64,000 nucleotides of DNA from Bdellovibrionales bacterium (lineage in GTDB: Bacteria; Bdellovibrionota; Bdellovibrionia; Bdellovibrionales; JAGQZY01). The DNA is taken from NCBI GenBank assembly GCA_964230645.1, contig CAXRHT010000003.1, positions 459,108 through 523,107 on the forward strand. Reading direction: 5' to 3'. A model generated the notes under the pieces. It was given only the letters and a program-made list of their open reading frames with translations. It was not told the origin of the DNA and did no database searches. The first letter of the stretch is position 1, and every line of letters starts with the position of its first letter. The translations under genes were made by a program, and so were the position numbers. Below are positions 19,697 through 61,189 of the stretch, one piece after another.

Positions 19697-19710
19697 GCGG
19701 AGGCTAAGTA

Positions 19711-20097: not shown

Positions 20098-20110
20098 GGG
20101 GGGCAACATC

Positions 20111-32200: not shown

Positions 32201-32302
32201 GCTAGTCAAAGGTTCAACACGCATAAGGTTTAAATTATCAACAGGAGGGGAAACCTTTTAAAAAAACGGGTGTAAAATAAAGGGGATAGAGTAGAGGAGT
32301 AT

Positions 32303-35300
32303 TTGATACTACGCTTAAGTTTGGCGAAAGCCCGTAATTTTATACTGAGCTGTTTAACTGTGCCGTTCATGGTGGCTTGTATTGCCGATATCAATGAACC
32401 GCTGAGCAGTAATAATGGGCTACTTGTATTTTCAACATCCACTTCTCCCAGTGATCAAATCAATCAACTCGATTTCGGCGCTACAGCTGCGGCTCCTGGC
32501 CGATCCTTTGAAACCATTTTTCTAATTAATACCGGTGGCAAAGCCATTGATAGTATTAAAACCACTTTAACCGAATCAGAATTTGTTTTTGAAGGTGGTA
32601 ATTATCCAGGGATCGGTGGTGATTGTGCAAAAGACCTTTCGCCTGGTGAAGCTTGCTCTATCGTTTTAAGGTTTAATCCTCCAACGACCACGTCGTACAC
32701 GGGTGAATTAAATATCACCTACGGTGACTCGGCTGAATTAGTGGCTGCACGCCTTGATCTTAAAGGGCAGGGGACTAATCCCGCTCTACTCACTGTGAGT
32801 GAAACCGATCCTTACGATTATGGACAACAGCCACTGAATACTTCTGGCGAGCATGTGTTTACCATTTCCAATGTTCCTGATGGAGCGATTGCAAAAAGAA
32901 TTACCGAAGTGGCACTGAACCCTCCCTATGAGCTTAAAGGCGGAGAGTGGCCAGGCCTTGGTGGAACCTGTACTGATAAACTTCTCCCAGGGAATACCTG
33001 TTCGTTTGTTGTGACATTCACACCAACTGTTGTGGGTCCGAATTTGGGTGAAATTAACGTTCAGTATGACAACGGAATAACACAAGTCAGTGCGGACCGT
33101 GATTTAACAGGTGTAGGAGTGATCCCAGCTAACCTCGTAATCGACATGGCTCCTGTTTATGATTTTGGAACTTTAATTATATCTCAAAATGCCACCTTTA
33201 CTTTTACGGTAACAAACGCGGGTGGCCTTGATGCTACCTCAATGACAGGGGCGGGATTGGTTTTTCCTTTTAACTTCACTGGCGGATCTTATCCGGGCGC
33301 TGGTGGAGATTGTGGTACCACCCTCACTCCTTCTGCGACTTGTACGATTGAAGTGCAGTTTGCTCCAATTAATCCAGGCTCTTTTACTAGCACACTTGAG
33401 ATTCCTTATAATAACGGCGCTGTTTTAGATACTGCCACTCGTGATATCCAAGGGGCGGCAGTGACCCCGGCTCTTCTTACCATCAGTGACGGACCGACTC
33501 TCGATTTTGGCGTCACCGCTATTGGAAGCTCGCTGACTCATGCTTTTACTGTGACTAACTCGGGTGGTTCACAAGCCACAGCCATTCTTGATACAGGTGC
33601 TTTAGCCGCACCCTTTGATTACTCCGGTGTGGGGTATCCTGGTATTGGAGGCGACTGTAACGTGACTCTTGCTCCGGGGGCAAGTTGTACACTAGTGCTT
33701 GAGTTTGCTCCAACAGTGGCCAACATCTATAACGATCAATTAGAAATTTCATATAATGATGGACTCAGTGGACAGCTCGCTCAAAGGGACATTCAGGGAA
33801 CAGGGGTGATTCCTGCTACCTTAACAATTACGGAAACGGATCCTTACAACTATGGGTCTATCCCTACGGGTGGATTTATTACCCATACTTTCACCGTTGC
33901 AAATACGGGTGGTTTTTCAGCTAGTAGTATAGCTGAAGTGGGGCTTGCGGCACCTTTCGAATTCTCTGGTGGAGCTTTTCCAGGAGCCGGCGGGGACTGC
34001 ACAGCGACTTTACTTCCTGGAGACTCTTGTACATTAGAAATTAACTTTTCACCCACAGTCACTGGATTACAACAAGATACGATCGCTCTGAATTACTTTG
34101 ATGGGGCTACCAACCAAACAGTGAATAGAGATGTTGAAGGCTCGGGTGTGACACCCGCTTCTTTGAGTATTAATGAAGCACCTCTTTTTGATTATGGGTC
34201 TCCTGTTTTAGGGTCACAAACCGACCATACCTTCAATGTTAGTAACACTGGTGGATTCGCCGCTTCTAGTATCGTTGGCGGAGGACTTCTTCCTCCTTAC
34301 GAATATAAAGACGGAAGTTATCCAGGAACGGGAGGAAGTTGTACTAATACAATTGCTGCCGGTTCTACTTGTTCGATTGTGGTGACTTATTCTCCGACCG
34401 TGGTGGGAGTTGATAATGATACTATCGAGATTGATTATTTTGACGGAGTGAACTCGCAAACCGCCACTCGCGATATAACTGGAACGGGTGTGGTTCCAGC
34501 CTTTCTGACTTTAACAGAAGCGCCACTTTATGATTACGGAACAAGAGCTGTGGGTTCAAGCAATCTTCATATTTTCACAGTCAATAACGTGGGGGGTGCT
34601 CCTGCGACAAGCCTTGCTGAAATTGGCCTAGCCGCTCCCTATCAGTTTGTTGGAAGCGCTTATCCAGGAACCGGTGGGGATTGTGGTACCACCCTCGGTG
34701 CTGGCGCAAGCTGTACTCTCTATATTGAGTTTGCACCCACTGTGATTGGAAATTACAACGATCAAATACAGCTTGATTATTTTGATGGTGCAGCTTTGCA
34801 ACAAGTCACTCGTGATGTAACGGGGAATGGAGCCGCTCCCGCGAGTCTTTCGATTTCAGAGGCACCGACTTATGATTTTGGAAATGTTGCAATTGGTGGG
34901 CAAGACACACACTCTTTGGTTATTACAAATAGTGGTGGAGTTCCCGCGGTTTCACTCTCTGGTTCCACACTGACGCTTCCCTTTGATTATGAAGGCAGTA
35001 CTTATCCTGGATTGAGTGGTGATTGTACTGCTACTTTGGCTCCGGGTGCCACCTGTAGTATTTCCCTAAGTTTTTCTCCGACGGCATTAACAACATCCAA
35101 TGACACTTTCACTTTGAGTTATAACGATGGTGTAGGTGGTCAAAGCGTTCCTCGCGATGTCACGGGCACGGGGGTGAACCCTGCGCAATTAGCGATCGAT
35201 CAGGGACCGACTTTTGATTACGGGACTCTAGCCACTGGAAGTGCCCAGGTAAATCTGTTTACAGTTTCAAACTCTGGTGATGTCACAGCCAATAATATAG

Positions 35301-38300
35301 CTGTCGTGAATCCTCTCGGTCTTCCTTTTCAGTATGAGGGGGGAACTTATCCAGGAACGTCAGGAAATTGTGGAACAAGTCTTGCCTCCGGTGCCACTTG
35401 TAGTATTGCCGTTGAATATGCACCTACGGCCACAGGCAGTCACTCGGATACGATCGATATTCAGTATGATAATGGTGCCATTGTTACAAATACGACAAGA
35501 GATGTGCAAGGGAATGGGGTTAATCCGGCACTACTAGTGATCGATCAGTCTCCTCTTTACAATTTTGGTTCCGTTCCAACAGGAGCCACTCGTACATTTA
35601 TTTTCACAATGACTAATACCGGAAGCTTTTTAGCCAGTGGGCTTTCAGGAGCGGGTCTAACTCCACCGTTCACCTATTCCGGTGGCTCCTTCCCTGGTAC
35701 TGGTGGGGATTGCGCGGCTACTTTGGCGGCGAGTAGTAGTTGTCAGATCGAAGTGCTTTATTCACCGACGAATGTTGCTACCCACACAGCGACTATGGAT
35801 GTGAACTATTTTGATGGAGCCAATAATCAAAATAGTCTGCGGGATTTACAAGGAACAGGAGTGGCTCCAGCACTCCTAGAAATTTCTAATGCTCCAAGCT
35901 TTAACTTTGGAACAGTAGCAACCGGTTCTATTAACACCCAAGTACTAACCGTGAGTAACTCTGGTGGGTTTCAAGCCACTGCGATTGCTGATAATCTGGG
36001 GCTCGCAGCTCCATTTAGTTTTTCAGGGGGAACATTCCCTGGAGTCGGTGGAGATTGTGCGGCCACACTTGCTGCTGGAAGTACATGTCTTATTGAAGTT
36101 AGTTATAACCCCGTTGCACCAGCTTCTGATAGCGACACCATCGATATTGCCTACAATAACGGAGTCTCTGCTCAAAACGCTCTAAGAGATTTATTAGGTG
36201 TGGCTGTGAACCCCGCCGTCATTGATATTACGGAAACAGATCCCTATGACTTCGGTACAATAGCGACAGGTGGAATTCGCACTCATATTTTTACATTATC
36301 AAATTCCGGTGGAATCACTGCTACGGGAGTAGCAGAAGTTGGACTGGCGGCTCCTTTTGCTTTTACGGGCGGAGCTTTTCCTGGAACCAACGGAGATTGT
36401 ACTAGTAGTATCGCCAACGGTGCTTCTTGTGATATCGAGATTGCCTACCAGCCGACTGTGACCGGGACGCAAACAGACTCAATTGAAATTCAGTACAATG
36501 ATGGCTCAGGAAGTGTAAGCTCACTAAGACAAATTCAAGGAACGGGTGCTGCCCCAGCTTCCATTACAATCACCGAAACCGATCCTTATGATTATGGAAC
36601 TTTGGCTCAAGGGGGCTCAGCCACTCATACCTTTACTCTTACCAACGCGGGTGGTGTTGATGCCACAGTGATGAGTGGTGGAGGATTAGGAGCTCCTTTT
36701 AGTTTCACTGGTGGTTCCTACCCAGGTGCCGGTGGTGATTGTGGAGCGACCCTTGTTCCCGCTGCAACTTGTTTGATCGAAGTGCAATTTGCACCGACCA
36801 CCGCTGCTGTTTTTAACGACACGATTGATATCAATTATTTTGATGGGGCTAACAACGTCACTTCCGCTCGTGATATCACGGGAACTGGTGCAGCTCCCGC
36901 TCTTCTAACGATCAGTGAATCCAATCCCTATAACTTTGGACTCATCGCCAATGGCGGAAGTGTCTCCCATAGTTTTACAATTTCAAATGCCGGTGGTGTT
37001 CCAGCGACGGCTGTTGCCGAGGTGGGCTTAAGTGCTCCGTTTAATTATTTAGGAGGAAGCTTCCCAGGAACCGGTGGTGATTGTGGTGCAACGATTGGAG
37101 TGGGTGCGAGTTGTACGATTCGCGTGGCCTTTCAACCAACAGCGACCGGGGTTTTCCCAGATACCATTGATTTTACCTATAACAATGGTTCTGCGGTGGT
37201 GAATTCCACACGCGATGTTCAGGGAACAGCGACCGCTCCTGCTAGTATAGCCATTAGTGAGACCGATCCTTATAATTACGGTACAAGAGCTGTCGGTTCT
37301 GTGACCTCTCATATTTTTAGTTTAACAAACTCCGGGGGTGTTTCTGCCACGGCGATTGCCGATGCTGGTGGACTTGCCGCTCCTTTTTCCTATGTGGGAG
37401 GAAGTTTTCCTGGAACAGGCGGGGACTGTGGAGCGACACTAGCCGCTCTAGCTAGCTGTAATATTGAAGTTATTTATAGTCCAACAGCCGCTGTTACAGA
37501 CACCGATACCATCGATGTTAATTATAATGATGGAACGGGTGCTACCAACACCACAAGAGATGTGACTGGAACAGGAGCTCTACCCGCCAACCTCTCAATC
37601 ACTGAAACCGATCCTTTTGATTTTGGCTCGGTCACCGTGGGCTCTAGTCAAACCCATATCTTTACCATTTCCAATGGTGGTGGTGTGGCTGCAACGACGA
37701 TCAGTGAAGTTGGTTTAGCGCCACCTTTTGCCTTTGCTGGTGGTGGAGGGTTTCCAGGAGCTGGTGGTACATGTACTGCGACCCTTGGTGCGAGTGCGTC
37801 TTGTGATGTGGTTGTTGAATTCACTCCAGCGGGTTCTGGATTTGTTTCCGATACGATCGATTTTAGCTATTTTGATGGAGTTAACACTCAAAATGTTACT
37901 CGAAATATTCAAGCCACAGGCCTTGTGCCAGCGACCTTAAGTATTTCAGAGCTTGATCCCTATGATTACGGAACAAGGCCCACAGGAAGCATCAATCAAC
38001 ATGTTTTTGTTGTTACCAACACTGGTGGAACTCAGGCTTCAGGAATGGCCGGTGCGGGACTCAATGCACCTTTCCGATTTGAGGGGGGCTCTTACCCTGG
38101 AACCTCTGGAAGTTGTGCTGCTACGTTGGCTGTTGGAGCCAGTTGTAATCTTGTTGTAGAATATGCTCCCGTGGCTGTGAGCCCTAGTGACACAGATACC
38201 ATCGACATGAACTACTTTGATGGAGCTAATTCTCAGGTCAGCTCAAGAGACCTTGTCGGAGTGGCTGTGACTCCAGCCCTACTCACTATTAGTGAATCCG

Positions 38301-53300: not shown

Positions 53301-56300
53301 GTACTTGTACAGGAACATTAGCCAGTGGTTCAAGCTGTACTGTGGAAGTGGCCTTTTCTCCAACAGCGACAGGGGCTCTTTCTTCGACTCTGACTTTTCA
53401 ATATAACAATGGGGCTTCCACTGTTACCGAGACAAAAGTTCTTAACGGTACCGGAGCGACTCCGGCTCTTGTGACAATCAGCGGTTCTGACCCTGTGGAT
53501 TTTGGAAGTGTGACTCAAGGATCAAGTACAAGTTTAACTCTCACTCTGAATAACACTGGAACGGTCAATGCTACAGGAATCAGTGGTGGTGGATTAACCG
53601 CTCCTTTTGCTTTTACTGGAGGATCCTATCCTGGATCGGCCGGAACTTGTGGTGATCCCATTTTACCGGCCACTCCTTGTACCATTGAGTTACAATTTTC
53701 CCCAACATCTCCTGTAGTTAGCACTTCGCAAGTGGATATCAACTACAACAATGGGGCGGGCGCTCAAACGAGTACCCGTACATTAACAGGTGAAGGTATC
53801 GCTCCAGCTCTACTAACAATGAGTTTAGGCGATCCTTACGATTTTGGAACGGTAGCCAATGGCGGTGGTATCCGAAGTCAAAGTTTTACAATCACGAATA
53901 TTGGGTCAAGTTCTGCCACAGGTATGAATGAAATTGGTATGGGAGGAGACTTTGACTTCTACCTCACCACTTATCCAGGAAACGGTGGAAACTGTGGGGC
54001 CTCACTGCCTCCAGCTGGAACTTGTACGGTCGTTTTAGAGTTTACACCAACAAGTCTTGGACCTGCTGCCAGTACTTTTGATTTACAGTACAACGATGGT
54101 GTTAATACACAAAATTTAACTAAAGATGTGCAAGGTGTGGGTGGGAATCCTGCGGTTCTCTCTATTTCTGATGGACCGACTTACAATTACCTAAGTAAAG
54201 CGATTGGGTCATCAACTTCTCACTTGTTTACTGTCACAAATACCGGGGCGGTGACGGCGATCTCTATGGCTGACGCCGGTACGCTCAATCCTCCATTTGT
54301 CTTTACCGGTAGTGGATATCCTGGGGACAACGGAGACTGTGGAGCGACTTTGGCTTCGAGTGCGACCTGTACTATTGAGGTGGCTTATGAACCGACAAGC
54401 CCAGGGTCTTCTACAGAAACTGTCACCTTAAGTTACAATGATTCCATCAACAATCAGACAGCTTCAGTGGGTGTCACTGGAACAGCGACGACAGCTGCCA
54501 ACTTGAGTATTACTGGTGTAGACCCTGTCGATTTTGGCAGTGTCACTCAAGGGGCCTCCAGCAATGTGGTGTTTACTCTAAATAACTCCGGAGGAGTGGC
54601 CGCCACAGCAATCACTGAAGTTGGTATGAGTCTACCGTTCCGCTTTCGTGGAGGAAGTTATCCGGGAACCTCTGGAACATGTGGTACCAGTTTAAGTTCC
54701 GGTCTTTCTTGTGATATTGATGTCGAATTTTTACCAACGACATCTGGCTTTGTTTCACAGACAATAGATATCAATTATTTCAACGGACAGTCCACTCAGA
54801 GTGTGACTCGCGACGTGCAAGGAACAGGACTCGATCCCGCTATACTTGGTATTTCTGAAGTGAATCCTTATAGTTTCGGCACAAGACCTATTGGCTCTTC
54901 AACACTTCACGTGTTTACAGTCACTAACACAGGTGGTTCTGAGGCCACCGGTATGGCCGGTGGACCACTGTCATCTCCTTACCGATTTGAGGGCGGAACT
55001 TATCCTGGAACTTCAGGAGATTGTGGAACCAATTTAATTGCTGCAGCTTCCTGTACTATTGCTGTTGAGTTTTTACCAGTAACGACAAATCCAAGTTACA
55101 CCGACACAATTACGATCAACTATACGGATGGAGCCAGCGGACAAGTGTCCACTCGCGACATCGTCGGTGTTGCGGTGAATCCGGCGCAGTTAAGTATTTC
55201 TGAATCGGATCCTTACAATTTTGGCTCTCATCCCACCGGAGACAATGTTACTCATATATTTACTATCTCTAATACAGGTGGAGTGACAGCAACGGGAATT
55301 GTAGAGAATGGTCTTGCCGCTCCTTTTACTTATGTTGGTGGAACTTATCCAGGGACTGGTGGAGACTGTAGTCCGAACCTCGCTGCTGGAGACTCTTGTA
55401 CAATAGAAGTTCAGTACACTCCTGCGACTGTGGCTACTCATCCTGATACAATCAGTTTTGATTACAATAATGGTGTGAATCCTCGGACGGAAACTCGGGA
55501 TGTGACTGGAACAGGTGTAACACCAGCCATTATCGATATCTCTGAATCCGACCCATATGACTTTGGATCGGTCGCCGAGATGAGCTCTAGAACCCACTTT
55601 TTCACATTAACCAATAACGGAAGTGTCAACGCCACATCCATTACAGAATCAACTTTATCAGCCCCTTACCAGTTTGCTGGAGGCGGCGGATTCCCTGGTG
55701 CTGGTGGAGACTGTACGGCGACTCTGGCACCAGCTGCGAGCTGTACTATTGAAGTCGAGTTTGCTCCCACTACAACAGGTGTGTTCAATGACTCAATCAC
55801 TATCCAATATAACAATGGAGCCAGTACCACATCTCGAATAAGAACGATCACTGGGACTGGTACATCAACGGCTAACCTTGTGATTACGGAGTCACCTTCT
55901 TACGACTTTGGAAACGTCACAAGTGGTGGCGGAACAAGAACTCATATCTTCTCGATCACTAACACAGGTGGAGTGGACGCCACGGGCGTGCTCGGTGGTG
56001 GATTGTCTTCACCATTTAGTTATACAGGAGGTTCGTTCCCTGGTAGCGGTGGAAACTGTGCCGATCCAATCCCTGCTTCAAGCACTTGTCAGATTGAAGT
56101 GAGTTTTACACCTGTGGCTAATGTTCTGACTTCCGATTCCATTGAAGTAGACTACAATGATGGTGTGGCTCCAAGACAAGTGACAAGACTTGTGCAAGGA
56201 ACAGGTGTGGCTCCGGCTCTATTGACGATCTCTGAATCCGATCCTTATAGTTACGGCATCGTACCGATTTCTGGTGGTTTTAGAGATCATCTCTTCACTG

Positions 56301-59300
56301 TTACGAATAGCGGAAACTCTGTGGCGACTGGTATTTCTGAAATTGGTTTGGCAGCGCCTTTTGATTTTGCCGATGGCTCTTTCCCTGGAACGGGGGGAGA
56401 TTGTGGTACTTCACTCGGAGTGGGGGCAAGTTGTGATATCGTGATTCGCTACACGGCTTCAGCCATTGGAGCTCAAGCCGATACCATCAGTTTACAATAT
56501 AACAATGGAGCTTCAAGCTCGACTTCCAATCGCGACGTTCAAGGAACAGGCGGACAACCCGCCACCTTAAGTATTACAGGAGCTGATCCTTACAATTACG
56601 GCACAGTTTCCGTTGGTGCTACTGTAACTCAAACATTCACGGTACAAAACACCGGAGCTGTGGCAGCAACCAGTATTTCTGATGCTGGTACAATGGCCGC
56701 TCCTTACACCTACCGTGGTGGATCGGGCTTTCCTGGAACGAGTGGAACCTGTACCGCCACAATCGCTCCGGGGGGCAGTTGCACCATTGTTGTCGATTAC
56801 ACTCCGAGTGCACTCGGTGCTCAAGCCGACGATATAGAATTACAATTTGATAATGGTGTGATCACAACCAGTTTCACTCACGGTGTGACTGGAACAGGAG
56901 CCAGTGTTGCCAACTTAACCATCTCTGAGACGGAACCCTACGATTTTGGAACTGTTCCAGTTGGTGGAAATCTCGATCATATATTCACTATCAATAACAC
57001 CGGTGGGGTACCTGCTACAGGAATTACTGGAGTTGGGTTATCCGCTCCTTTTAGTTTCAGTGGCGGCGCTTTCCCTGGAACCAACGGAACTTGTGGAACA
57101 ACCATCAACAACGGCGTTCCATGTACCATTGAGGTTCGCTATAGCCCTGCTGCAACAGGAACTTTAAGTAGCAATATTAACTTACAATACAATAACGGAA
57201 CTTCAGTGGTGAACTCCATTCGCGGGGTCCAAGGAACCGGAGCCGCTCCAGCTTCTTTGACGATTTCTGATGGACCTGGAAACTATAATTATGGCGTAGT
57301 CACCATTGGAAACTCGCCCACGCGCACATTTACCATTACAAACAATGGTGGTGTGGATGCCACAGCCATGTCCGGTTCGGGCTTGAGTGCTCCTTTCACA
57401 TTTGCTGGTGGTAGTGGTTATCCCGGTGGAGGAACTTGTGGAGCGACCTTATTACCAACAGCCTCTTGTACTGTGGTTGTGGAATACGCTCCTTCGGCGA
57501 CCGGAACACTCAATGACACGATTGAAATCTCTTTCAATGATGGAGTCGGTGTACAAACAGCGACAAGAGGTGTACAGGGTACCGGTCAAAACCCTGGACT
57601 CTTAACGATCAGCGATGGTCCTACTCATAGTTTTGGTACAGTGACAGTTGGTAACTCAAGAGACTATACTTTCACAGTTCAATACACAGGCGACGCTTCG
57701 GCCACATCGGTGGCTGATGGTGCAGGCTTAGCGGCTCCTTTTGATTGGAAAGATGGTGTTTATCCTGGAACGGGTGGAACTTGTGGTACTTCAATTAGTG
57801 CGGACTGTACAATCGTTGTTACCTATGCTCCAACTCTTGCCAGTGCCGGGGATAACGACCAAATCGTGATCAATTACAACAATGGTGCCAATGCAGTGAA
57901 TGCCACTCGTGATATTACGGGTGTGGCTGCCGATCCAGCTCTTCTTACAATTTCAGAAACCGATGGTTACAGCTTAGGAAATGTTGTAACCAATGCCACC
58001 ACCTCCCATGTCTTTATCGTAACGAACACAGGGAACACGGATGCAACAAGTGTGTCAGAAATCGGAATCGGAGCTCCTTACAGATACCGTGGTGGCTCTT
58101 ACCCAGGAACCAGTGGTAACTGTGGCGGCACATTAACAGCGGGTAACAACTGTAGCCTTGATATCGAATTTGCTCCAGTGGCCACGGGTGCTGCTCCAGA
58201 AACAATCAATGTGAGTTATAACAATGGTGTGAGCACTCAAAGTGTGCAGAGAAATATTACTGCCACCGGTATTGCTCCTGCTAACATCACAATTTCAGAA
58301 ACCGACCCTTATGATTTTGCAACGGTCGCCATTGGTAGTTCAAGAGCTCGATTGTTAACTCTAGAAAACACAGGCGCAGCAACAGCCACTGGAATGACAG
58401 GGGCGGGGCTTGCCGGACAATTCTCTTTTAGAGGAGGCGGAGGTTATCCTGGTGCTGGTGGAGACTGTGATGCTGATCTAACGCCTGGCGAGACTTGTTT
58501 GATCGAGGTGGCCTTTGCACCAACGGCCACTGGTCTTGATAGTGATACAATTGATATTAACTACAACGATGGCGCTGCGGCCCAAACTTCAAGCCGTGAT
58601 GTACAAGGAACTGGAGCCAACCCCGCTCTCCTTACTATCAGTGAATCCGATCCGTTCAACTTTGGAACACATGCGACAGGCTCAACTGCTGAATACACTT
58701 TCACAGTGACAAACTCGGGAGGAGTCAATGCAACAGCCGTAGCCGATGGACTTGGTTTAGCCGCTCCTTACGACTGGAAAAATGGAACCTATCCTGGAAC
58801 TGGTGGTACCTGTGGTACCACTATTACAACAAGCACACCATGTACCGTGGTCGTGACTTTCTCGCCTACAATTGCCGGAACACAAAATGATGCCATCGTG
58901 ATCAACTATAATAACGGTGTGGGTGTTGTGAACACTCAAAGGCAAGTAGAGGGTGTTGGAGCTGATGCCGCTAATCTGACAATATCTGACGGTCCTACCT
59001 TCGATTGGAATATTGTGACTGTTGGTTTTAGTGCTCAATACACTTTCACCATTACCAATACAGGTGATATTTCTGCCACTTCAGTGGGAGGAACCGGTCT
59101 TGGTTCTCCTTATTCTTTCTTTGGTGGCAGTGGCTATCCCGGTGGCGGAACTTGTTTAACCAGTATTGCCCCAGGAGCTTCTTGTACTGTAATTGTTGAA
59201 TTTACGCCGACGGGCTCGGGTACTGCTAATGATACCATGCAAATCACATACAATGATGGTGTGACGTCGCAAATTTCCAATCGTGATATGACAGCCACGG

Positions 59301-61189
59301 GCTATGAAAATAACGCCGTTGTTTCACTGCAAAACCCTGCAACGAGTCCTAACAATGTTTCAACACCTACGATTCGTATCAACAACTTGGTGGCTGGTGT
59401 GACTTCAAGACTATATAGTGATGCGGGTTGTGCCAACGAAGTGAGTACAGACGTCGCTGTCAGTGCCACAACCGATGCCACCTCTTCCATCTTGACGGAC
59501 AACACTTACGAGTTCCATGTCAGAGTAGAAGACTCCTATGGAAACATCACCGCGTGTTCAACAAGTAGTGTGGATTATATCCTGGACACAGGAACTCCAG
59601 ATCCTTCATTGTGGACATGGCTCATGAACAGTCCCAATGATGGGACGACTTCCTCTGATCCTACGCCTCAAATTAATATGAGTAGTGCCACCGGAGAGAA
59701 TGGAACTTCTGTACAGCTTTACGATGAGGCGACCTGTACGAACAACGTAGGTTCACCCAGAACTGTGGCTTCGCAAGCCGCGAGTTTTACAGATATCAGC
59801 TATCTTACCAATGGTACTCAAGACGGGCAGAAGACCTACTTCGCCATCGCTTCAGACATAGCCGGTAATATTTCAGGTTGTACACCAGTAGGACTTGATT
59901 ACTTCCTTGATCAAGTGAATCCGAACGCGGCCTCTGGACTTGCAACTGCAAGCGTTTGGCACACTCCCGATACCGCTTCAGCTCCACAATTTTCTTGGGC
60001 CGCCGTATCTGATCCAGCTCCATCAAGTGGGGTGGACAGAATTGAAGTGGCAATTTCTACCCAAGTCGGTGGTGGAAACGAAGCTGGAGGCTGGACAGCG
60101 CTTGCACCGGGAGCGACATCTCACACCTACTCTTCGGGCTTAGCACTAACAGAGTGTTCACCTTATTACCCAAGCATTCGAGTGGTTGATAACGCACAGA
60201 ACGTTTCAAATACCGTTACAGCCCCGTCATTTAGAGTGGACATCACCAACCCGACCGATCCTGTGATCTCTAGAGGTACAAATCAAAATACCACTCAATC
60301 ACCTACAATTAATATTGATACGGCGAGTACCGATAATTGTTCTTTCAGTCAGTACCAAGCTCTTGTTTCTAGAGACACCAACGACAATGGTTCTTTAGAT
60401 CCAGGTGAAGAAGGAAACGTTCAAGCTTGGACCAATATTGGTAATGTGGCGACTTATCAATACTCGGGTGCTCTTGCTCCAGGAAGTCGTTACATTGTTT
60501 CTATCCGGGGAGTGGACGCTGCTGGTAGAACAAGTAACACGGTTAGCACTGATGCTTGGGGAATTCCAATCGAGTATATCGGTAGTTGGCAGCAAGGTCT
60601 CACCCATGTACCAACAGCTGGATCCAGTCGAATGCTGTTCGTAACAATGGCGATGGATGTTGAAAACAGTGATTCCGACCTTATCGCGATGACCTATGGT
60701 GGACAGGCGATGTTCCAAGTGGGAGAAGCAAATGCGACAGCCACCAACAACTGGACCACGCGTACTGAAATTTGGGCTTGTAATGAGGCTTGTATTTCTG
60801 CTGCGACAAACAATAACATCAACCCAACTTTTGCGAATGGTGCTGCAAAACATCCAAATTATGCGAGCGCGATGTTCCAATATGTTAATCAAGCTTCGCC
60901 AGTTTTTGATACAGCCAATAATCAGTCAACCAGTGCGCAAAACCTGACGACTCCGCTACTCAATGAAAATGAGACGGGCTTAAATGTGGCTTCTGTGGGT
61001 CATGGTAACACGGCTGTTTTCCTCGCTGTACCTCCTGGTTATACCGAATCAGGCGGTCAGACAAGTGCCCAATCTGAGCACAACTCTGGGCATCTGGTCA
61101 TTCAGACGGATGGAGCCAACACATATTTCTTTAACTCTAACAGCACACAACGTATGGCTGCGGTTGTTGTCCATATTAACCCTCAGTAG
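32303..61189 (+). CDS. Giant (9,628 aa) repetitive surface lipoprotein/adhesin with 78 ASH/HYDIN-like (choice-of-anchor D-like) Ig repeats
   Basis: Uninterrupted ORF with RBS GAGGAG and TTG start; lipobox-like MVAC at Cys26. The ~115-aa repeats carry 'P.dFG...g....ftitN.G...at......l..pF...gg.fPG.gG.C...L..g.sC.i.v.f.P...g.....i.Y.nG......l.G.g', typical of ASPM-SPD2-Hydin/choice-of-anchor D domains. Confidence 0.93.
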   Translation: MILRLSLAKARNFILSCLTVPFMVACIADINEPLSSNNGLLVFSTSTSPSDQINQLDFGATAAAPGRSFETIFLINTGGKAIDSIKTTLTESEFVFEGGNYPGIGGDCAKDLSPGEACSIVLRFNPPTTTSYTGELNITYGDSAELVAARLDLKGQGTNPALLTVSETDPYDYGQQPLNTSGEHVFTISNVPDGAIAKRITEVALNPPYELKGGEWPGLGGTCTDKLLPGNTCSFVVTFTPTVVGPNLGEINVQYDNGITQVSADRDLTGVGVIPANLVIDMAPVYDFGTLIISQNATFTFTVTNAGGLDATSMTGAGLVFPFNFTGGSYPGAGGDCGTTLTPSATCTIEVQFAPINPGSFTSTLEIPYNNGAVLDTATRDIQGAAVTPALLTISDGPTLDFGVTAIGSSLTHAFTVTNSGGSQATAILDTGALAAPFDYSGVGYPGIGGDCNVTLAPGASCTLVLEFAPTVANIYNDQLEISYNDGLSGQLAQRDIQGTGVIPATLTITETDPYNYGSIPTGGFITHTFTVANTGGFSASSIAEVGLAAPFEFSGGAFPGAGGDCTATLLPGDSCTLEINFSPTVTGLQQDTIALNYFDGATNQTVNRDVEGSGVTPASLSINEAPLFDYGSPVLGSQTDHTFNVSNTGGFAASSIVGGGLLPPYEYKDGSYPGTGGSCTNTIAAGSTCSIVVTYSPTVVGVDNDTIEIDYFDGVNSQTATRDITGTGVVPAFLTLTEAPLYDYGTRAVGSSNLHIFTVNNVGGAPATSLAEIGLAAPYQFVGSAYPGTGGDCGTTLGAGASCTLYIEFAPTVIGNYNDQIQLDYFDGAALQQVTRDVTGNGAAPASLSISEAPTYDFGNVAIGGQDTHSLVITNSGGVPAVSLSGSTLTLPFDYEGSTYPGLSGDCTATLAPGATCSISLSFSPTALTTSNDTFTLSYNDGVGGQSVPRDVTGTGVNPAQLAIDQGPTFDYGTLATGSAQVNLFTVSNSGDVTANNIAVVNPLGLPFQYEGGTYPGTSGNCGTSLASGATCSIAVEYAPTATGSHSDTIDIQYDNGAIVTNTTRDVQGNGVNPALLVIDQSPLYNFGSVPTGATRTFIFTMTNTGSFLASGLSGAGLTPPFTYSGGSFPGTGGDCAATLAASSSCQIEVLYSPTNVATHTATMDVNYFDGANNQNSLRDLQGTGVAPALLEISNAPSFNFGTVATGSINTQVLTVSNSGGFQATAIADNLGLAAPFSFSGGTFPGVGGDCAATLAAGSTCLIEVSYNPVAPASDSDTIDIAYNNGVSAQNALRDLLGVAVNPAVIDITETDPYDFGTIATGGIRTHIFTLSNSGGITATGVAEVGLAAPFAFTGGAFPGTNGDCTSSIANGASCDIEIAYQPTVTGTQTDSIEIQYNDGSGSVSSLRQIQGTGAAPASITITETDPYDYGTLAQGGSATHTFTLTNAGGVDATVMSGGGLGAPFSFTGGSYPGAGGDCGATLVPAATCLIEVQFAPTTAAVFNDTIDINYFDGANNVTSARDITGTGAAPALLTISESNPYNFGLIANGGSVSHSFTISNAGGVPATAVAEVGLSAPFNYLGGSFPGTGGDCGATIGVGASCTIRVAFQPTATGVFPDTIDFTYNNGSAVVNSTRDVQGTATAPASIAISETDPYNYGTRAVGSVTSHIFSLTNSGGVSATAIADAGGLAAPFSYVGGSFPGTGGDCGATLAALASCNIEVIYSPTAAVTDTDTIDVNYNDGTGATNTTRDVTGTGALPANLSITETDPFDFGSVTVGSSQTHIFTISNGGGVAATTISEVGLAPPFAFAGGGGFPGAGGTCTATLGASASCDVVVEFTPAGSGFVSDTIDFSYFDGVNTQNVTRNIQATGLVPATLSISELDPYDYGTRPTGSINQHVFVVTNTGGTQASGMAGAGLNAPFRFEGGSYPGTSGSCAATLAVGASCNLVVEYAPVAVSPSDTDTIDMNYFDGANSQVSSRDLVGVAVTPALLTISESDPYSYGTLATGASRAHSFTISNTGGSQATAIAESTVAAPFRYTGAGNTFPGAAGDCGTTLAAGATCTIEVEYAPTVVNASDAGTITFGYNNGVSVQGVARTLSGVAVTPASITMDQGDPYNYGTVAQGASRNVVITLTNGGGFNATSLTEITLGGDFDFTGAGFPGTGGNCTATLTSGATCTIEVAFSPSSTGALAGTLSLQYNNGVSVVTETKALSGTGAAPALITISGTDPVDFGTVTQGSNTTILLTVNNTGAVNATGISGGGLAAPFGFTGGTYPGLGGTCGDPILPSTPCNIEIQFSPTTAVVSNGQVDINYNNGVGPQTTTRTLVGEGVAPALLTISGVDPYDFGTIANGGGIASVAFTINNIGSSSATAINETTLGGDFDFYLAGYPGSGGTCGASLPAGGSCNVVLEFTPTSLGPLSSTFTLQYNDGAAVQTESKDLQGVGGAPALLDIASSDPHDFGTAAIGSTNTVILTISNGGAVSATGMAAVASLSPPFNYTGVGYPGTNGTCGTSLATSATCDIEVQWVPAALGPQTQNISINYNDGTGATNFTHGVQGTGANPAQLAIQGVDPADFGNVTQGDTQTLILTVENTGDVNATGITETGLAGDYAFTAPGTFPGGAGTCTTTITNGSTCTIEVQVTPSSTGIIPGTITFDYNNGANNTSYSHGLTTNGLAPAVLAITPGPGNYDFGTRPVGSTNSNTFTLTNSGGSAATLIVGGGLSAPFTYSGGSFPGGGTCTGTLASGSSCTFVADYLPVAANGAESDTITIDYNDGAAAQQITLGLDAVSQTRATLTISESDPYNYGTLATGATRAHSFTISNTGEFQAGAITETTVAAPFRYTGAGNTYPGAAGDCGATLAGGATCTIEVEYAPTLVSAGDSGTITFGYNDGVAVQSVARTLSGVAVTPASITMDQGDPYNFGTVAQGASRNVLITLTNGGGFGATSITETTLGGDFDFTGAGFPGTGGNCTTSLLSGASCTIEVQFAPASTGALAGTLSIQYNNGVTTVTETKALSGSGAAPALITISGTDPVDLGNVTQGSNSTVILTVNNTGAVNATGISGGGLSAPFGFTGGSYPGTGGTCGDPILPSTPCTIELQFSPTTAVVSNGQVDINYNNGVGPQTTTRTLVGTGVAPALLTLSGVDPYDFGTLANGGGIAAVTVTVDNIGSSSATAMSETTLGGDFDFYLSGYPGNGGTCGASLPAGSNCTVVLEFTPTSLGPLSSTFTLQYNDGAAVQTESKALQGVGGAPALLDIATSDPHDFGTRAIGSTNTVILTVTNGGAVAATTIADAATLSPPFNYTGTGYPGTNGTCGVSLNSGASCDLEVQWVPASTGVQNQNITLNYNDGTGATSFVHGLQGTGANPAQLAIQGVDPADFGNVTQGDTQILILTVENTGSVNATGIAETGLAGDYAFTAPGTFPGGAGTCTTTITNGSTCTIEVQVTPSSTGIIPGTITFDYNNGANNTSYSHGLTTNGLAPAVLAITPGPGNYNFGTRPVGSTNSNTFTLTNSGGSAASLIIGGGLSAPFTYSGGSFPGGGTCTGTLASGSSCTFIVDYLPTVANGAETDTITVDYNDGAAAQQITLGLDAVSQTRATLTISESDPYNYGTLATGATRAHSFTISNTGEFQASAIGESTVAAPFRYTGAGNIYPGAAGDCGATLAGGATCTIEVEYAPTLVSAGDAGTITFGYNDGVAVQSVARTLSGVAVTPASITMDQGDPYNFGTVAQGASRPVIITLTNGGGFGATSITETTLGGDFDFTGAGFPGTGGNCTASLLSGASCTIEVEFAPTVTGALAGTLTVQYNNGVSTVTETKALSGNGAAPALITISGTDPVDFGSVTQGASNTLLLTVNNTGAVNATGISGGGLAAPFGFTGGSYPGSGGTCGDPILPSTPCTIELQFSPTTAVVSNGQVDINYNNGVGPQTTTRTLVGTGVAPALLTFSGTDPYDFGTIANGGGIASVTVTVDNIGASSATAMNETTLSGDFDFYLSGYPGNGGTCGASLPAGSNCTVVLEFTPTSLGPLSSTFTIQYNDGAAVQTEAKDLQGVGGAPALLDIATSDPHNFGTRAIGSNNTVILTVTNGGAVAATTIADGLSLTPPFDFTGGSYPGSNGTCGASLATGANCDIEVQWIPAATGLQSQNITLNYNDGTGAATFTHGLQGTGANPALLSIQGADPADFGNVTLADTQTLLLTVENTGGVAATAVVESGLAGDYAFTAPGTFPGGGGSCPTTISSGSTCTIEVQVTPSSTGVISGNVTLDYNNGATNTSYTHGLTTNGLSPATLAITPGPANYDFGTRPINSVNTNTFTLTNGGGSPATGIVGGGLASPFVYSGGSFPGGGTCTGTLAAGSSCTFVVDYLPTVANGAETDTITIDYNDGTVAQQTTLGLDAVSQTRSLLTISESNPYNYGTLATGATRANTFTITNTGEYQATAISETTIANPFRYTGAGNTFPGAAGDCGTTLNGGASCTIEVEYAPTVVSGADSGTITFGYNDGVAVQSVARTLSGVAVTPASITMNQGDPYNFGTVAQGASRNVLITLTNGGGHGASAITETTLGGDFDFSGAGFPGTGGNCTATLLSGASCNIEVAFAPGSTGALAGTLSIQYNNGVSVVTETKALNGTGASPALITISGTDPVDFGNVTQGSSTTTLLTVNNTGSVNATGISGGGLGAPFSFTGGSYPGLGGDCGDPILPATPCTIEVRFAPTAAVVSNSQVDINYHNGVSPQTTTRTLVGTGIAPALLTFSGVDPYDFGTIANGGGIASVTVTVDNIGSSSATGINETTLGGDFDFYLSGFPGNGGTCGASLPAGSNCTVVLEFTPTSLGPLASTFTLQYNDGAAVQTEAKDLQGVGGAPALLDIATSDPHDFGTRAIGSTNVVVLTITNGGAVAATAIADAATLTSPFSYTGAGYPGSNGTCGASLASGASCDIEVSWVPAATGLQNQTVTLNYNDGSGATSFTHGLQGTGANPALLSIQGADPADFGNVTLADTQSLLLTVENTGDVAATSVSESALAGDYAFTAPGTFPGGGGSCTATIGGGATCTIEVQVTPSSTGVISGNVTLDYNNGATNTSYTHGLTTNGLSPATLAITPGPANYDFGTRPINSVNTNTFTLTNGGGSPATGIVGGGLASPFVYSGGSFPGGGTCTGTLAAGSSCTFVVDYLPTVANGAETDTITIDYNDGTVAQQTTLGLDAVSQTRSLLTISESSPYNYGTLATGATRAHTFTIANTGEYQATAISETTVTNPFRYTGAGNTYPGAAGDCGATLNGGASCTIEVEYAPTVVSGADSGTITFGYNDGVAVQSVARTLSGVAVTPASITMNQADPYNFGTVAQGASRNVLITLTNGGGHSATSLTEITLGGDFDFTGAGFPGTGGNCTASLLSGASCNIEVTFAPGSTGALAGTLTLQYNNGVTTVTETKDLSGAGAAPALITISGTDPVDFGNVTQGSNNTLLLTVNNTGAVNATGISGGGLSAPFGFTGGAYPGSAGTCGDPILPSTPCTIEVRFSPTTAVVSNGQVDINYNNGVGPQTTTRTLVGTGIAPALLTFTGADPYDFGTVANGGGLASVTVTVNNVGSSSATAMNETTLGGDFDFYLTSYPGNGGTCGASLPAGGSCDVVLEFTPTSLGPLASTFTIQYNDGAAVQTEAKALQGVGGAPALLDIATSDPHNFGTRAIGSNNTVILTITNGGAVAATGIADAATLSAPFDYTGTGYPGTNGDCGASLASSASCDIEVQWIPSSTGLQTQDITLNYNNGTGATAFVHGLQGTGANPALLSIQGADPADFGNVTQGNPRVLLLTVENTGDVNATGITESGLAGDYAFTAPGTFPGGGGNCTTTISSGGTCTIEVRVIPSSTGAVTGNVTLNYNNGATNTSYTHGLTTNAISPAILAITPGPANYDYGTRPINSTNTNTFTLSNSGGSPATSIVGGGLASPFIYSGGSFPGGGTCTGTLAAGSSCTFIVDYLPTTANGAETDTITIDFNDGVALQQTTLGLDAVSQTRANLTISESNPYGYGTLATGATRAHTFTISNTGEFQATAIAETTVAAPFRYTGAGNVFPGAAGDCGTSLNGGATCIIEVEYAPTVAPSADSGTITFGYNDGVAVQSVARTVAGTAVTPASITMNQGDPYNFGTIAQGSSTNVVITLTNGGGATATSVSETTLGGDFRFTGAGNTFPGGAGNCTATLTSGASCTIEVEFAPSSTGALAGTLTIQYGNGVTTVTETKALSGTGAAPALITISGSDPVDLGSVTQGASTTTLLTVNNTGAVNATGISGGGLAAPFGFVGGSYPGTGGSCGDPILPSTPCTIEIQFSPTAATVSNGQVDINYNNGVTPQTTTRTLVGTGVAPAQLTITGADPYDFGTIASGGGVQSVTFTVQNVGASSATAITETTLAGDFDFYLTTFPGTGGTCGASLAAGASCDVVLEFTPTALGPLAETFTLQYNDGAATQSINKDLQGVGGSPALLDIATSDPHDFGTRAIGSTNTVILTVTNGGSVAATGMADGATLSSPFAFTGAGYPGTNGDCGASLASGASCDVEVQWVPAGTGLQAQTMTINYNDGTGATNFTHGLQGTGANPALLSIQGADPVNFGSVTQGDTQSLILTVENTGDVSATTITESGLSGDYSFTAPGTFPGGAGNCTATLTSGSTCTIEVQVSPTSTGAISGTITLNYYNGANNSSYNHGTLTNGIAPAVLAITPGPGNYNYGTRPINSTNTNTFTLTNSGGSPATGIVGGGLVAPFVHSGGSFPGGGTCTGTLASGSSCTFVVDYLPTVANGAETDTITIDYNDGAVVQQATLGLDGVSQTRANLTISETDPYNFGVLANGATRSHIFTIANTGEFQATAISESTLVAPFRFTGAGNTFPGAGGDCGALLAGGASCSIEVEYAPSAAPAADSGTITLGYNDGVAVQSVARTLSGTAVTPANITMDQADPYNFGTLAQGASRNVLITLSNGGGHGATALSETTLSGDFDFTGAGFPGANGTCTGTLASGSSCTVEVAFSPTATGALSSTLTFQYNNGASTVTETKVLNGTGATPALVTISGSDPVDFGSVTQGSSTSLTLTLNNTGTVNATGISGGGLTAPFAFTGGSYPGSAGTCGDPILPATPCTIELQFSPTSPVVSTSQVDINYNNGAGAQTSTRTLTGEGIAPALLTMSLGDPYDFGTVANGGGIRSQSFTITNIGSSSATGMNEIGMGGDFDFYLTTYPGNGGNCGASLPPAGTCTVVLEFTPTSLGPAASTFDLQYNDGVNTQNLTKDVQGVGGNPAVLSISDGPTYNYLSKAIGSSTSHLFTVTNTGAVTAISMADAGTLNPPFVFTGSGYPGDNGDCGATLASSATCTIEVAYEPTSPGSSTETVTLSYNDSINNQTASVGVTGTATTAANLSITGVDPVDFGSVTQGASSNVVFTLNNSGGVAATAITEVGMSLPFRFRGGSYPGTSGTCGTSLSSGLSCDIDVEFLPTTSGFVSQTIDINYFNGQSTQSVTRDVQGTGLDPAILGISEVNPYSFGTRPIGSSTLHVFTVTNTGGSEATGMAGGPLSSPYRFEGGTYPGTSGDCGTNLIAAASCTIAVEFLPVTTNPSYTDTITINYTDGASGQVSTRDIVGVAVNPAQLSISESDPYNFGSHPTGDNVTHIFTISNTGGVTATGIVENGLAAPFTYVGGTYPGTGGDCSPNLAAGDSCTIEVQYTPATVATHPDTISFDYNNGVNPRTETRDVTGTGVTPAIIDISESDPYDFGSVAEMSSRTHFFTLTNNGSVNATSITESTLSAPYQFAGGGGFPGAGGDCTATLAPAASCTIEVEFAPTTTGVFNDSITIQYNNGASTTSRIRTITGTGTSTANLVITESPSYDFGNVTSGGGTRTHIFSITNTGGVDATGVLGGGLSSPFSYTGGSFPGSGGNCADPIPASSTCQIEVSFTPVANVLTSDSIEVDYNDGVAPRQVTRLVQGTGVAPALLTISESDPYSYGIVPISGGFRDHLFTVTNSGNSVATGISEIGLAAPFDFADGSFPGTGGDCGTSLGVGASCDIVIRYTASAIGAQADTISLQYNNGASSSTSNRDVQGTGGQPATLSITGADPYNYGTVSVGATVTQTFTVQNTGAVAATSISDAGTMAAPYTYRGGSGFPGTSGTCTATIAPGGSCTIVVDYTPSALGAQADDIELQFDNGVITTSFTHGVTGTGASVANLTISETEPYDFGTVPVGGNLDHIFTINNTGGVPATGITGVGLSAPFSFSGGAFPGTNGTCGTTINNGVPCTIEVRYSPAATGTLSSNINLQYNNGTSVVNSIRGVQGTGAAPASLTISDGPGNYNYGVVTIGNSPTRTFTITNNGGVDATAMSGSGLSAPFTFAGGSGYPGGGTCGATLLPTASCTVVVEYAPSATGTLNDTIEISFNDGVGVQTATRGVQGTGQNPGLLTISDGPTHSFGTVTVGNSRDYTFTVQYTGDASATSVADGAGLAAPFDWKDGVYPGTGGTCGTSISADCTIVVTYAPTLASAGDNDQIVINYNNGANAVNATRDITGVAADPALLTISETDGYSLGNVVTNATTSHVFIVTNTGNTDATSVSEIGIGAPYRYRGGSYPGTSGNCGGTLTAGNNCSLDIEFAPVATGAAPETINVSYNNGVSTQSVQRNITATGIAPANITISETDPYDFATVAIGSSRARLLTLENTGAATATGMTGAGLAGQFSFRGGGGYPGAGGDCDADLTPGETCLIEVAFAPTATGLDSDTIDINYNDGAAAQTSSRDVQGTGANPALLTISESDPFNFGTHATGSTAEYTFTVTNSGGVNATAVADGLGLAAPYDWKNGTYPGTGGTCGTTITTSTPCTVVVTFSPTIAGTQNDAIVINYNNGVGVVNTQRQVEGVGADAANLTISDGPTFDWNIVTVGFSAQYTFTITNTGDISATSVGGTGLGSPYSFFGGSGYPGGGTCLTSIAPGASCTVIVEFTPTGSGTANDTMQITYNDGVTSQISNRDMTATGYENNAVVSLQNPATSPNNVSTPTIRINNLVAGVTSRLYSDAGCANEVSTDVAVSATTDATSSILTDNTYEFHVRVEDSYGNITACSTSSVDYILDTGTPDPSLWTWLMNSPNDGTTSSDPTPQINMSSATGENGTSVQLYDEATCTNNVGSPRTVASQAASFTDISYLTNGTQDGQKTYFAIASDIAGNISGCTPVGLDYFLDQVNPNAASGLATASVWHTPDTASAPQFSWAAVSDPAPSSGVDRIEVAISTQVGGGNEAGGWTALAPGATSHTYSSGLALTECSPYYPSIRVVDNAQNVSNTVTAPSFRVDITNPTDPVISRGTNQNTTQSPTINIDTASTDNCSFSQYQALVSRDTNDNGSLDPGEEGNVQAWTNIGNVATYQYSGALAPGSRYIVSIRGVDAAGRTSNTVSTDAWGIPIEYIGSWQQGLTHVPTAGSSRMLFVTMAMDVENSDSDLIAMTYGGQAMFQVGEANATATNNWTTRTEIWACNEACISAATNNNINPTFANGAAKHPNYASAMFQYVNQASPVFDTANNQSTSAQNLTTPLLNENETGLNVASVGHGNTAVFLAVPPGYTESGGQTSAQSEHNSGHLVIQTDGANTYFFNSNSTQRMAAVVVHINPQ
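38279..54154 (+). repeat. Seven-domain super-repeat (2,415 nt / 805 aa), 6 complete copies plus 4 domains
   Basis: The homologous TPGP codon lies at 40361, 42776, 45191, 47606, 50021 and 52442 (spacing 2415 four times, then 2421). Domain order A-G is conserved. Confidence 0.93.

Follow-up and report, generated by a model that had tools for sequence, protein, structure and literature searches.

The window analysed here, a stretch of 64,000 nucleotides from an uncultured marine Bdellovibrionales bacterium (contig CAXRHT010000003.1 of assembly GCA_964230645.1, positions 459,108 to 523,107 of the forward strand), contains at 32303-61189 on the plus strand a gene whose product, referred to below as the giant, is probably an N-terminally lipid-anchored, rod-like, long-reach adhesin of the cell surface. 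Its architecture, seen throughout a family of relatives, comprises a lipid anchor, 1 to about 92 immunoglobulin (Ig)-like domains, a four-domain neck and an exchangeable head. The gene runs for 9,628 codons without an internal stop, from a TTG start at 32303, which a Shine-Dalgarno-like GAGGAG (32294..32299, plus strand; read directly from the sequence) precedes by 3 nt, to a stop codon at 61187-61189, and the mature protein has 9,603 residues, a mass of 954.7 kDa and a pI of about 4.05 (691 Asp plus Glu versus 159 Lys plus Arg). The original prediction, a short note made from the letters of the window, had described a single 28.9-kb open reading frame (ORF) with a lipoprotein-type signal at Cys26, 78 tandem Cys-paired repeats and a composition dominated by G, T, A, S, N and D. 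All of this stands: the frame is open throughout, Cys26 closes a PROSITE-type lipobox, the 78 repeats are recovered as domains, and the measured composition is T 14.6, G 14.4, A 10.7, S 8.8, N 6.3 and D 4.8 %.

The signal peptide occupies residues 1-25, and the candidate lipidation site, Cys26, is encoded by codon 32378-32380 (whole feature 32303..32380, plus strand; PS51257 core pattern and homologue alignment). A positively charged n-region (R4, K9, R11) precedes an uncharged h-region (F13-A25) that ends in the lipobox F-M-V-A-C, the Cys falls within residues 15-35 as in lipoproteins generally, and a tether (residues 26-40) follows that opens with C-I-A-D-I-N-E-P. The PROSITE PS51257 core pattern matches the giant once, at Cys26 (SCLTVPFMVAC), with R4 within the first 7 residues; the only other cysteine of the signal region, C17, fails the pattern because of K9 and R11. 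Homologues align LVSC, LLSC, IASC or LTAC to this lipobox, and the lipobox together with a tether of the form C-[IV]-A-[DNS]-[IV]-x-E-P recurs at all seven loci examined, i.e. those of the giant, of its paralogue and of five out of five fetched orthologues. The paralogue is a second giant of the host genome (C2:614093-642637; 9,514 aa, 76 domains), in which the N-terminus reads ...FLVSC-IADVNEP and the C-terminus is unlike that of the first. Among 15 further giant-sized proteins retrieved from databases, eight satisfy the strict lipobox pattern, four more have a lipobox-like Cys by eye and three begin inside a domain, so that family members with a complete N-terminus have a lipobox every time. 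These observations bear out the proposal that the giant enters the Sec lipoprotein pathway (Sec, then Lgt and LspA), and it is predicted on sequence grounds to be lipidated at Cys26. All four host proteins with a choice-of-anchor-D domain (2, 3, 76 and 78 domains) carry a lipobox, which means that in this lineage the 'choice of anchor' for the domain is an N-terminal lipid. The two small ones are a protein with a 435-aa open frame and two such domains at C1:980508-981812 and a protein with a 954-aa open frame and three domains at C2:602618-605479, the latter about 9 kb from the second giant, with which it shares neck domains. A genome-wide regular-expression search for lipoproteins was set aside because it missed the giants themselves.

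From residue 41 to residue 8998 the protein consists of 78 tandem Ig domains of the choice-of-anchor-D or ASH-HYDIN type, 113-117 aa each (32423..59296, plus strand; delimited from a hidden Markov model (HMM), NCBIfam, Pfam and a structural model). The HMM, made from the giant's own repeats, recovers 78 domains in the ORF. The wider HMM scans for which the original prediction had called covered the first 1,000 and last 1,062 residues in the case of NCBIfam and the full length in the case of Pfam. They place the repeats, above cut-off, in NF012200 (choice_anch_D; 310.7 bits over nine stretches of the first 1,000 residues and 117 bits in the last 1,062, for a cut-off of 45) and in the HYDIN/ASH/Cep192 Ig families PF22544, PF15780 and PF22073. 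Across the entire giant Pfam returned only ASH/HYDIN-type Ig families and, in the C-terminal part, weak Big_13 and Ig_Rha78A_N matches, and a search of PDB sequences with a three-domain piece gave no match. Structure prediction for a domain pair, likewise called for at the outset, was made with AlphaFold2 from an alignment of the giant's own 77 domain pairs and yielded a confident model (pLDDT 97, pTM 0.84) of an ASH-type tandem Ig fold. Structurally it comes closest to tandem ASH domains found in the central apparatus of cilia (HYDIN/CFAP; E about 1e-12, TM 0.65), followed among PDB folds by CEP192 and then Vibrio VesC.

The giant has 166 cysteines, namely two in the signal region (C17 and C26), 156 in 78 pairs and eight in the C-terminal 630 residues. 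The pairs recur with a period of 114-117 aa and have the spacing C-x9-C in 77 of the 78 cases; the only C-x7-C pair, residues 8494/8502, lies in domain 74 (57782..57808, plus strand; from the cysteine positions). Both cysteines are unchanged in 77 out of 77 aligned domain pairs; in the two-domain model the first sits in a conserved PG-x-GG-x-C loop and the second opens the next strand. We infer that the two form a disulfide in each repeat. The earlier suggestion that the chain is oxidised in the periplasm is plausible, given that both cysteines are invariant across the repeats and that the host genome encodes a DsbA with a CPFC site and a VKOR-DsbA fusion, both with CxxC sites and both away from the giant loci. 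The fusion (C2:64763-66022) has CPAC in its membrane part and CPHC in its thioredoxin part and, judging from its sequence, seems to stand in for DsbB as the periplasmic oxidant. An Ig domain is about 4 nm long, and the 78 stalk domains plus the four of the neck would thus make an extended rod of roughly 0.3 um. The stalk is poor in lysine, with 25 in 8,959 residues (0.28 %) as compared to 7.0 % in the other long ORFs of the genome; six homologous giants have 0.16-0.43 %. Such depletion might confer resistance to trypsin-like proteases or avoid cross-linking.

Superimposed on the domain repeat is a second periodicity. Domains 18-63 form about 6.5 copies of a seven-domain unit of 805 aa or 2,415 nt (38264..54136, plus strand), which was found by offset identity and a domain matrix; Tandem Repeats Finder reported no repeats because the period exceeds 500 nt. 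Equivalent domains of this super-repeat are 62-100 % identical, versus about 40 % for other pairs. A period of ~800 aa, i.e. seven domains, is common to all seven giants from four genera (best self-offsets of 799-805 aa or double), which suggests a shared structural constraint or block-wise amplification.

Is a gene of this kind real? Mis-joined repeats, or an unexpressed and decaying frame, would be a natural suspicion for a locus that is highly repetitive, at which exact repeats of 31 nt or more interrupt short-read graphs in four places, and which is contained in no RNA sequencing run. The breaks in question are the only interruptions in Logan contigs from four marine metagenome runs, which tile 37000-56999, the most repetitive part of the gene, with 0 mismatches and at an even single-copy depth of ~1x; flanking contigs begin at about 27.9 kb and extend past the window end. 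These runs may include the source sample and are therefore not fully independent, in contrast to homologues in other genomes, and here the paralogue and six homologues are similarly long and intact. The host assembly consists of 3 contigs and is 99.6 % complete. The locus is found on other public contigs as well, two of them longer than 1 Mb, and on the 1.10-Mb contig of GCA_041252335.1, for which gene calls are shown, the same 9,628-residue product is called. Misassembly is further made unlikely by the super-repeat copies, which are only about 75-80 % identical in DNA (differences of 20-25 %) and not near-identical, and decay by the lack of a single stop in 9,628 codons. An artefact, which the original prediction had itself named as a hazard, is accordingly refuted as far as sequence data allow, and we regard it as vanishingly improbable. 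The G+C content of the gene (45-49 % over 32001-60000) is higher than in the flanks (40-44 %); its Gly/Ala/Thr-rich composition may account for this without a foreign origin.

Following the stalk is a neck of about 420 aa (residues 8999-9418; 59297..60556, plus strand) made up of four domains, two of them Big_13-like Ig and two FN3/Ig-like, as read from weak Big_13 and Ig_Rha78A_N matches; every one of the four contains a Cys pair. The neck is 42-57 % identical among giants whose heads differ completely. The head itself (residues 9419-9628, 210 aa plus stop; 60557..61189, plus strand) is an all-beta sandwich with the fold of phage 'minor tail protein' models. It matches no Pfam or NCBIfam family; its sequence matches phrog_2106 'minor tail protein' (E 6.5e-5) and its structural model matches phage minor tail protein models in BFVD (E 8.5e-9, TM 0.7-0.79). 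Among 1.84 billion clusters its relatives fall into 334 representative clusters at E below 1e-3, accompanied by FN3, RTX, Big_13 or metalloprotease domains; the head family takes N-terminal, internal and C-terminal positions in these very varied proteins. Several polar residues of the head are invariant (H17, R25, D34, E71, Q112, S114). It is this phage minor-tail-protein fold that gives the idea of a capture tether its best support.

The same neck bears quite different heads in other family members. The 210-aa phage-minor-tail-like type is present on the giant studied here and in the genomes G008, G002, G019, G022 and G023; a Laminin_G_3 (LamG) head is found in G016, G017 and G024, and an FN3 plus IgGFc-binding-like head on the paralogue of the host genome, with G003 similar by eye; GLUG, RCC1 repeats and, read by eye only, a leucine-rich-repeat-like region complete the range. 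In G008 the giant lies at a locus syntenic to that of the paralogue and nevertheless carries a head of the type studied here, which implies that heads move between loci. Two kinds of small protein carry the heads as well. One is a 377-aa lipoprotein of G005 (L010:1003-2136) that consists of a lipobox, one choice-of-anchor-D domain with C-x9-C and a phage-minor-tail-like head. The other is a lipoprotein of 298-320 aa that follows the LamG-headed giants and places the same LamG head behind a lipobox and a Gly-rich linker (G024, L014-L016, ORF 37913-38875; G016, L020-L021, ORF 31808-32704; mutual identity 50 %). Since they share the heads of the giants, the same tips appear to be mounted on stalks of anything from none or one to ~92 domains.

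Giant relatives of 5,500-11,200 aa occur in at least three families of the Bdellovibrionota, and a survey of homologues and neighbours, which the original prediction had proposed, also brought out a conserved DsbA-like neighbour described below. Intact giants of 8,489, 10,112, 10,317, 10,891 and 11,203 aa, together with a 9,152-aa open frame, were found in related genomes, all of them uncultured Pseudobdellovibrionaceae or Bdellovibrionales metagenome-assembled genomes. The 15 database proteins mentioned above came from a search for giant-sized proteins (5.5-7.9 k aa, 39-44 % identity), and one relative of 7,034 aa has already been named 'choice-of-anchor D domain-containing protein [Bdellovibrionaceae bacterium]' by NCBI. 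When the phylum was sampled evenly (150 genomes plus the host's own), strong matches to the domain pair were obtained in 25 of 151 genomes, mostly in proteins of 600-1,500 aa, and giants of 6,651 and 9,943 aa turned up in two other families of the phylum. A scan for related loci gave nothing with a single-protein query and three loci with an alignment of the neck. The family is patchy even inside one genus.

How might such a protein reach its place of action? None of the known export signals of giant adhesins could be recognised, in agreement with what had been claimed from the letters. Pfam found no RTX repeat (PF00353) anywhere in the 9,628 residues, no two-partner secretion (TPS) domain in the giant, no ShlB/POTRA partner in the window and no autotransporter barrel (PF03797) in the giant; the last of these families matched, sub-threshold, only a separate 175-aa barrel gene (20.2 bits versus a cut-off of 26). 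In the last 1,062 residues neither NCBIfam nor Pfam detected C-terminal sorting signals (Por_Secre_tail or the C-terminal domain of the type IX secretion system (T9SS), PEP-CTERM, LPXTG, GlyGly-CTERM); NCBIfam returned choice_anch_D alone, and the C-terminus, ...AAVVVHINPQ, has no hydrophobic tail. The predicted absence from the window of genes for a type I secretion system (T1SS; ATP-binding cassette (ABC) transporter, membrane fusion protein (MFP), TolC) or TpsB likewise holds, in that none is recognisable by Pfam among the 27 window ORFs scanned, several of which have no Pfam match. A genome search for SlipAM/Slam (PF04575) gave no match, but neither did its positive controls. Export by the type II secretion system (T2SS), as for PulA, is possible.

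The sequence of events that we favour would then run as follows. The giant would be exported through Sec and lipidated at Cys26; its 78 Ig-like domains would fold one after another in the periplasm, where the DsbA and VKOR-DsbA system would oxidise the C-x9-C pairs; the chain would then move to the cell surface, where the acidic, lysine-poor stalk would hold the neck and a ligand-binding head away from the cell, and the phage-minor-tail-like head could bind prey or particles at a distance. Surface exposure is suggested by two lines of evidence, the extracellular character of the domain families and the precedent of Bd0875, a lipobox adhesin of B. bacteriovorus that protrudes from the predator surface (PMC11003981).

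Several observations weigh against this scheme. A folded, oxidised, N-terminally anchored chain of 955 kDa crossing the outer membrane is without precedent, and no known exporter is tied to it; the host genome has four secretin genes, for which no linkage to the giants was seen. No RNA sequencing run among those searched contains the gene. As for the head, its model is of moderate confidence (pLDDT 78, from a 7-sequence alignment), it has no significant match among PDB folds (best E 0.01, TM below 0.3), its profile matches no PDB sequence, and what phage 'minor tail proteins' do is likewise known mostly by inference. Finally, it is only gene linkage that suggests roles for the DsbA-like and 151-aa proteins encoded downstream.

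It is therefore worth asking whether the giant ever leaves the periplasm. It could be retained there, attached either to the inner membrane or to the inner leaflet of the outer one, as a girdle, ruler or tether whose head docks to an envelope component. Neither an outer-membrane translocation signal nor a dedicated translocon was recognised, domains rich in disulfides and a DsbA-like partner are what one expects of the periplasm, and a ~800-aa period kept across genera might suit a ruler-like protein. A ruler, however, should hardly vary from 1 to about 92 domains, nor a housekeeping scaffold be patchy within one genus or carry heads that differ among paralogues and orthologues in the manner of ligand-binding tips under diversifying pressure. 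The choice-of-anchor-D and head families, moreover, sit in extracellular-type architectures (with RTX, FN3, Big_13 or protease domains), and the lipobox adhesin of B. bacteriovorus is surface-exposed (PMC11003981). We consider retention in the periplasm unlikely. Even less can be said for the opposite fate, in which the giant is cleaved from its anchor or released on outer-membrane vesicles to become a component of an extracellular matrix or net. Conservation of the lipobox and of the tether behind its Cys in all family members suggests that the anchor matters, and the giant loci have in common neither a cleavage motif nor a gene for a dedicated protease; thus, shedding is distinctly unlikely, even if acidity, lysine depletion and disulfide stapling would all suit a long-lived extracellular polymer and the authors of the Bd0875 study mention possible proteolytic transfer of that adhesin (PMC11003981).

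With the surface adhesin as the preferred reading, what do the genes around it contribute? The original prediction had noted no partner genes in the window, and in this it needs correcting, as the three genes just 3' of the giant encode a secreted protein of 151 aa, a DsbA-like lipoprotein and an outer-membrane barrel. Scans for promoters and terminators were uninformative, and between the giant and these three genes no terminator turned up. The DsbA-like lipoprotein (61738..62913, plus strand; 391 aa; Pfam and alignment) scores 33.7 bits against Thioredoxin_4 (cut-off 23.2) and reads I-S-S-P at the position of the CxxC site, and thus lacks the catalytic motif that defines DsbA oxidoreductases. 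When the ORFs lying up to 12 kb from seven giant genes were all compared with one another, its family (products of 390-480 aa) was the only one present at all seven loci; its gene always lies downstream, at a distance of 0.4-6.1 kb, and on the strand of the giant. All three copies in the host are no more than 7 kb from one of the two giants, and the family is limited to four of six sampled genera of the host's bacterial family (41 genomes searched). The CxxC position is non-Cys in seven of eight aligned locus-linked copies and in all three host copies. Long-form paralogues that keep a CxxC (CEDC, CDNC) are encoded at C2:451824-453248 of the host and by ORF 34761-36110 of the joined L020/L021 locus of G016, and their coexistence with the CxxC-less forms makes the latter look derived from an active long-form DsbA. 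A PDB sequence search with the DsbA-like neighbour gave no match, and a search for homologous proteins returned the query alone. The NCBI call of this protein begins at Met35 (357 aa) and loses the lipobox LLLVSC; the 391-aa reading agrees with the hydrophobic N-termini of all orthologues. Redox-inactive thioredoxin-fold domains that bind substrates include the b' domains of PDI and CnoX/YbbN, and by analogy the neighbour is probably a dedicated holdase or escort for the Cys-rich chain.

The 151-aa signal-peptide protein (61199..61654, plus strand; single copy per genome) is encoded 10 nt after the giant's stop codon. Genes of this type stand just 3' of the 210-aa head in three genomes, G002, G008 and G019. 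G022 and G023 contain weaker matches, and a further match, in G005, is on a short contig whose context is not resolved. Such an arrangement of a head and a small downstream gene is known from phage tail-fibre genes and their assembly chaperones, and from toxin/immunity pairs. Following the first analogy, the 151-aa protein would serve this head type specifically, in the simplest case by assisting its assembly in the periplasm as tail-fibre chaperones do in phages. The second analogy would turn the giant into a polymorphic toxin of the CdiA-CT/CdiI kind, with the variable C-terminal domain as a toxin on a stalk and the 151-aa product as a periplasmic immunity protein. This would fit C-terminal domains that vary on a conserved neck, the head-type-specific small protein and the invariant polar residues of the head, but not the phage receptor-binding-type beta-sandwich of that head or its occurrence at N-terminal, internal and C-terminal positions. 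No toxin family was matched either; heads of other types (LamG, RCC1) are binding modules of the lectin or propeller kind, the LamG-headed giants are trailed by a short LamG lipoprotein and not by an immunity-like gene, and no demarcation motif of VENN or PxxxxDPxGL type was seen by eye, no search having been made for one. A toxin is, in our view, very improbable.

The third gene encodes a small outer-membrane beta-barrel (63094..63621, plus strand; 175 aa, DUF3575-like, ending in ...GWAF). Its only host paralogue, C2:643564-644214, lies beside the second giant, one barrel being downstream and the other upstream of its giant; the flanks retrieved for five other giant loci contain no such barrel, and adjacency of a barrel, seen only at the host's two loci, was dropped as a conserved feature. 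Farther away, 12-29 kb upstream, is a flagellar filament cluster with three confirmed flagellin genes and fliD, fliS and flgN-like genes (2884-3717, 4667-5512, 14733-15560, 18275-20503), in which a fragment of an AbiEii-like nucleotidyltransferase (3900-4421) lies between two flagellin genes. A flagellar link to the giant was dropped because the paralogue locus has no recognisable flagellar genes (its ORFs were read, not scanned with Pfam).

Each ingredient of this system is already known separately, be it the domain family, the automatically annotated gene type, giant Ig-repeat adhesins, lipobox adhesins or the phage-tip-like fibres of predators (MAT; PMC10769870). The combination of a megadalton lipoprotein without any other sorting signal, about 80 Cys-stapled ASH domains, a seven-domain periodicity throughout the family, a swappable head on a conserved neck and an obligate DsbA-like neighbour gene, from which the CxxC has in most cases been lost, is undescribed in the literature searched. 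Gram-negative giant adhesins described so far leave the cell unfolded, via T1SS, the type V secretion system (T5SS) or T9SS. The giant family has instead a Sec/lipoprotein start, periplasmic disulfide stapling as we infer it, no known outer-membrane export signal and a size of about 1 MDa; should it be surface-exposed, it would make a sharp test case for the poorly understood export of surface lipoproteins. Naturally short versions, with two or three domains in the host and a single one in the 377-aa relative, make the export question tractable. The DsbA-like genes without CxxC, strictly associated as they are with the giants, may represent a new class of periplasmic chaperones with a redox-inactive thioredoxin fold, and in the seven-domain super-repeat bacteria have a counterpart to the higher-order periodicity of the titin type. 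If the adhesin reading is true, predators would gain a second fibre system besides MAT, namely a monomeric lipid-anchored Ig chain with phage- or lectin-like tips. It is conceivable, if on balance doubtful, that all these features belong to a new display system for megadalton lipoproteins, in which a redox-dead DsbA-like escort and a factor that matures a tip of phage receptor-binding type would serve a folded rod whose passage through the outer membrane would represent a novel form of surface-lipoprotein export, the number of domains, added in seven-domain blocks, would set the capture radius and heads would be swapped like the tips of phage tail fibres.

How does the giant compare with systems already described? 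A literature search found no functional study of choice-of-anchor D and no paper on giant lipoprotein adhesins of Bdellovibrio, and a preprint on 'giant genes' is silent on lipoproteins, on HYDIN and on Ig-like domains, Bdellovibrio figuring in it just as an example of a predator. The choice-of-anchor D proteins (NF012200) share its repeat domain far above the cut-off. Their name reflects C-terminal sorting signals; the giant has an N-terminal lipid as its anchor, and its 78 copies with a seven-domain super-repeat are extreme. The tandem ASH chains of cilia (PDB 9ijj, 7som, 7sqc), among them HYDIN with its chain of several thousand residues, are the best structural match; they are, however, eukaryotic and cytoplasmic, decorate microtubules and are only 13-20 % identical in sequence. 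With LapA, SiiE and MpIBP the giant has in common a megadalton, acidic rod of tandem Ig-like domains and a distal ligand-binding region. Those adhesins carry RTX repeats, an N-terminal retention plug, largely Cys-free repeats and, with no Sec signal, a T1SS signal at the C-terminus, and their genes adjoin those for ABC/MFP/TolC; the giant, by contrast, has a Sec/lipoprotein signal and 156 paired cysteines, and none of these listed features of T1SS adhesins was found in it.

Closer in anchoring are two lipoproteins of other bacteria. Klebsiella PulA, of about 117 kDa and with Asp at +2, is a lipoprotein that is exported by T2SS and kept on the surface, and offers, to our knowledge, the only well-studied route of a folded disulfide-containing lipoprotein across a proteobacterial outer membrane; the giant differs in having Ile at +2, and no linkage between giant and T2SS genes was seen. 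LigA/LigB of Leptospira are surface lipoproteins with 12-13 tandem Big_2 Ig-like domains and a C-terminal domain. Among described proteins they are the closest architectural analogue, consisting of a lipoprotein anchor, a tandem Ig-like stalk and a distal binding region, even though the domains belong to another family, are about 6-fold fewer and are displayed on a spirochaete envelope.

Within the phylum itself two comparisons suggest themselves. MAT proteins are said to form trimeric fibres, and they differ from the giant in having an ordinary signal peptide, a conserved N-domain (FTYQGQIIKPNG...) and 7-18 Cys, and in being neither lipoproteins nor equipped with ASH-type Ig repeats. The N-domain motif FTYQGQIIKPNG, when searched for, was absent from the giant and present in seven other host ORFs on C1 and C2 (2,232-3,249 aa), which have the MAT-type N-terminus FTYQGQIIKPNGQALE, so that the host possesses two separate long-fibre repertoires. 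Bd0875 and Bd1483 share with the giant an N-terminal lipobox and have, as is proposed for the giant too, a C-terminal part that protrudes from the cell and a role in handling prey, but are single-domain MIDAS/vWA proteins of ordinary size that have no Ig stalk, Cys-pair repeats or exchangeable head (PMC11003981). Exchangeable, phage-tail-like tips on stalks of very variable length are instead what the giant family shares with the MAT fibres on the surface of Bdellovibrio (PMC10769870).

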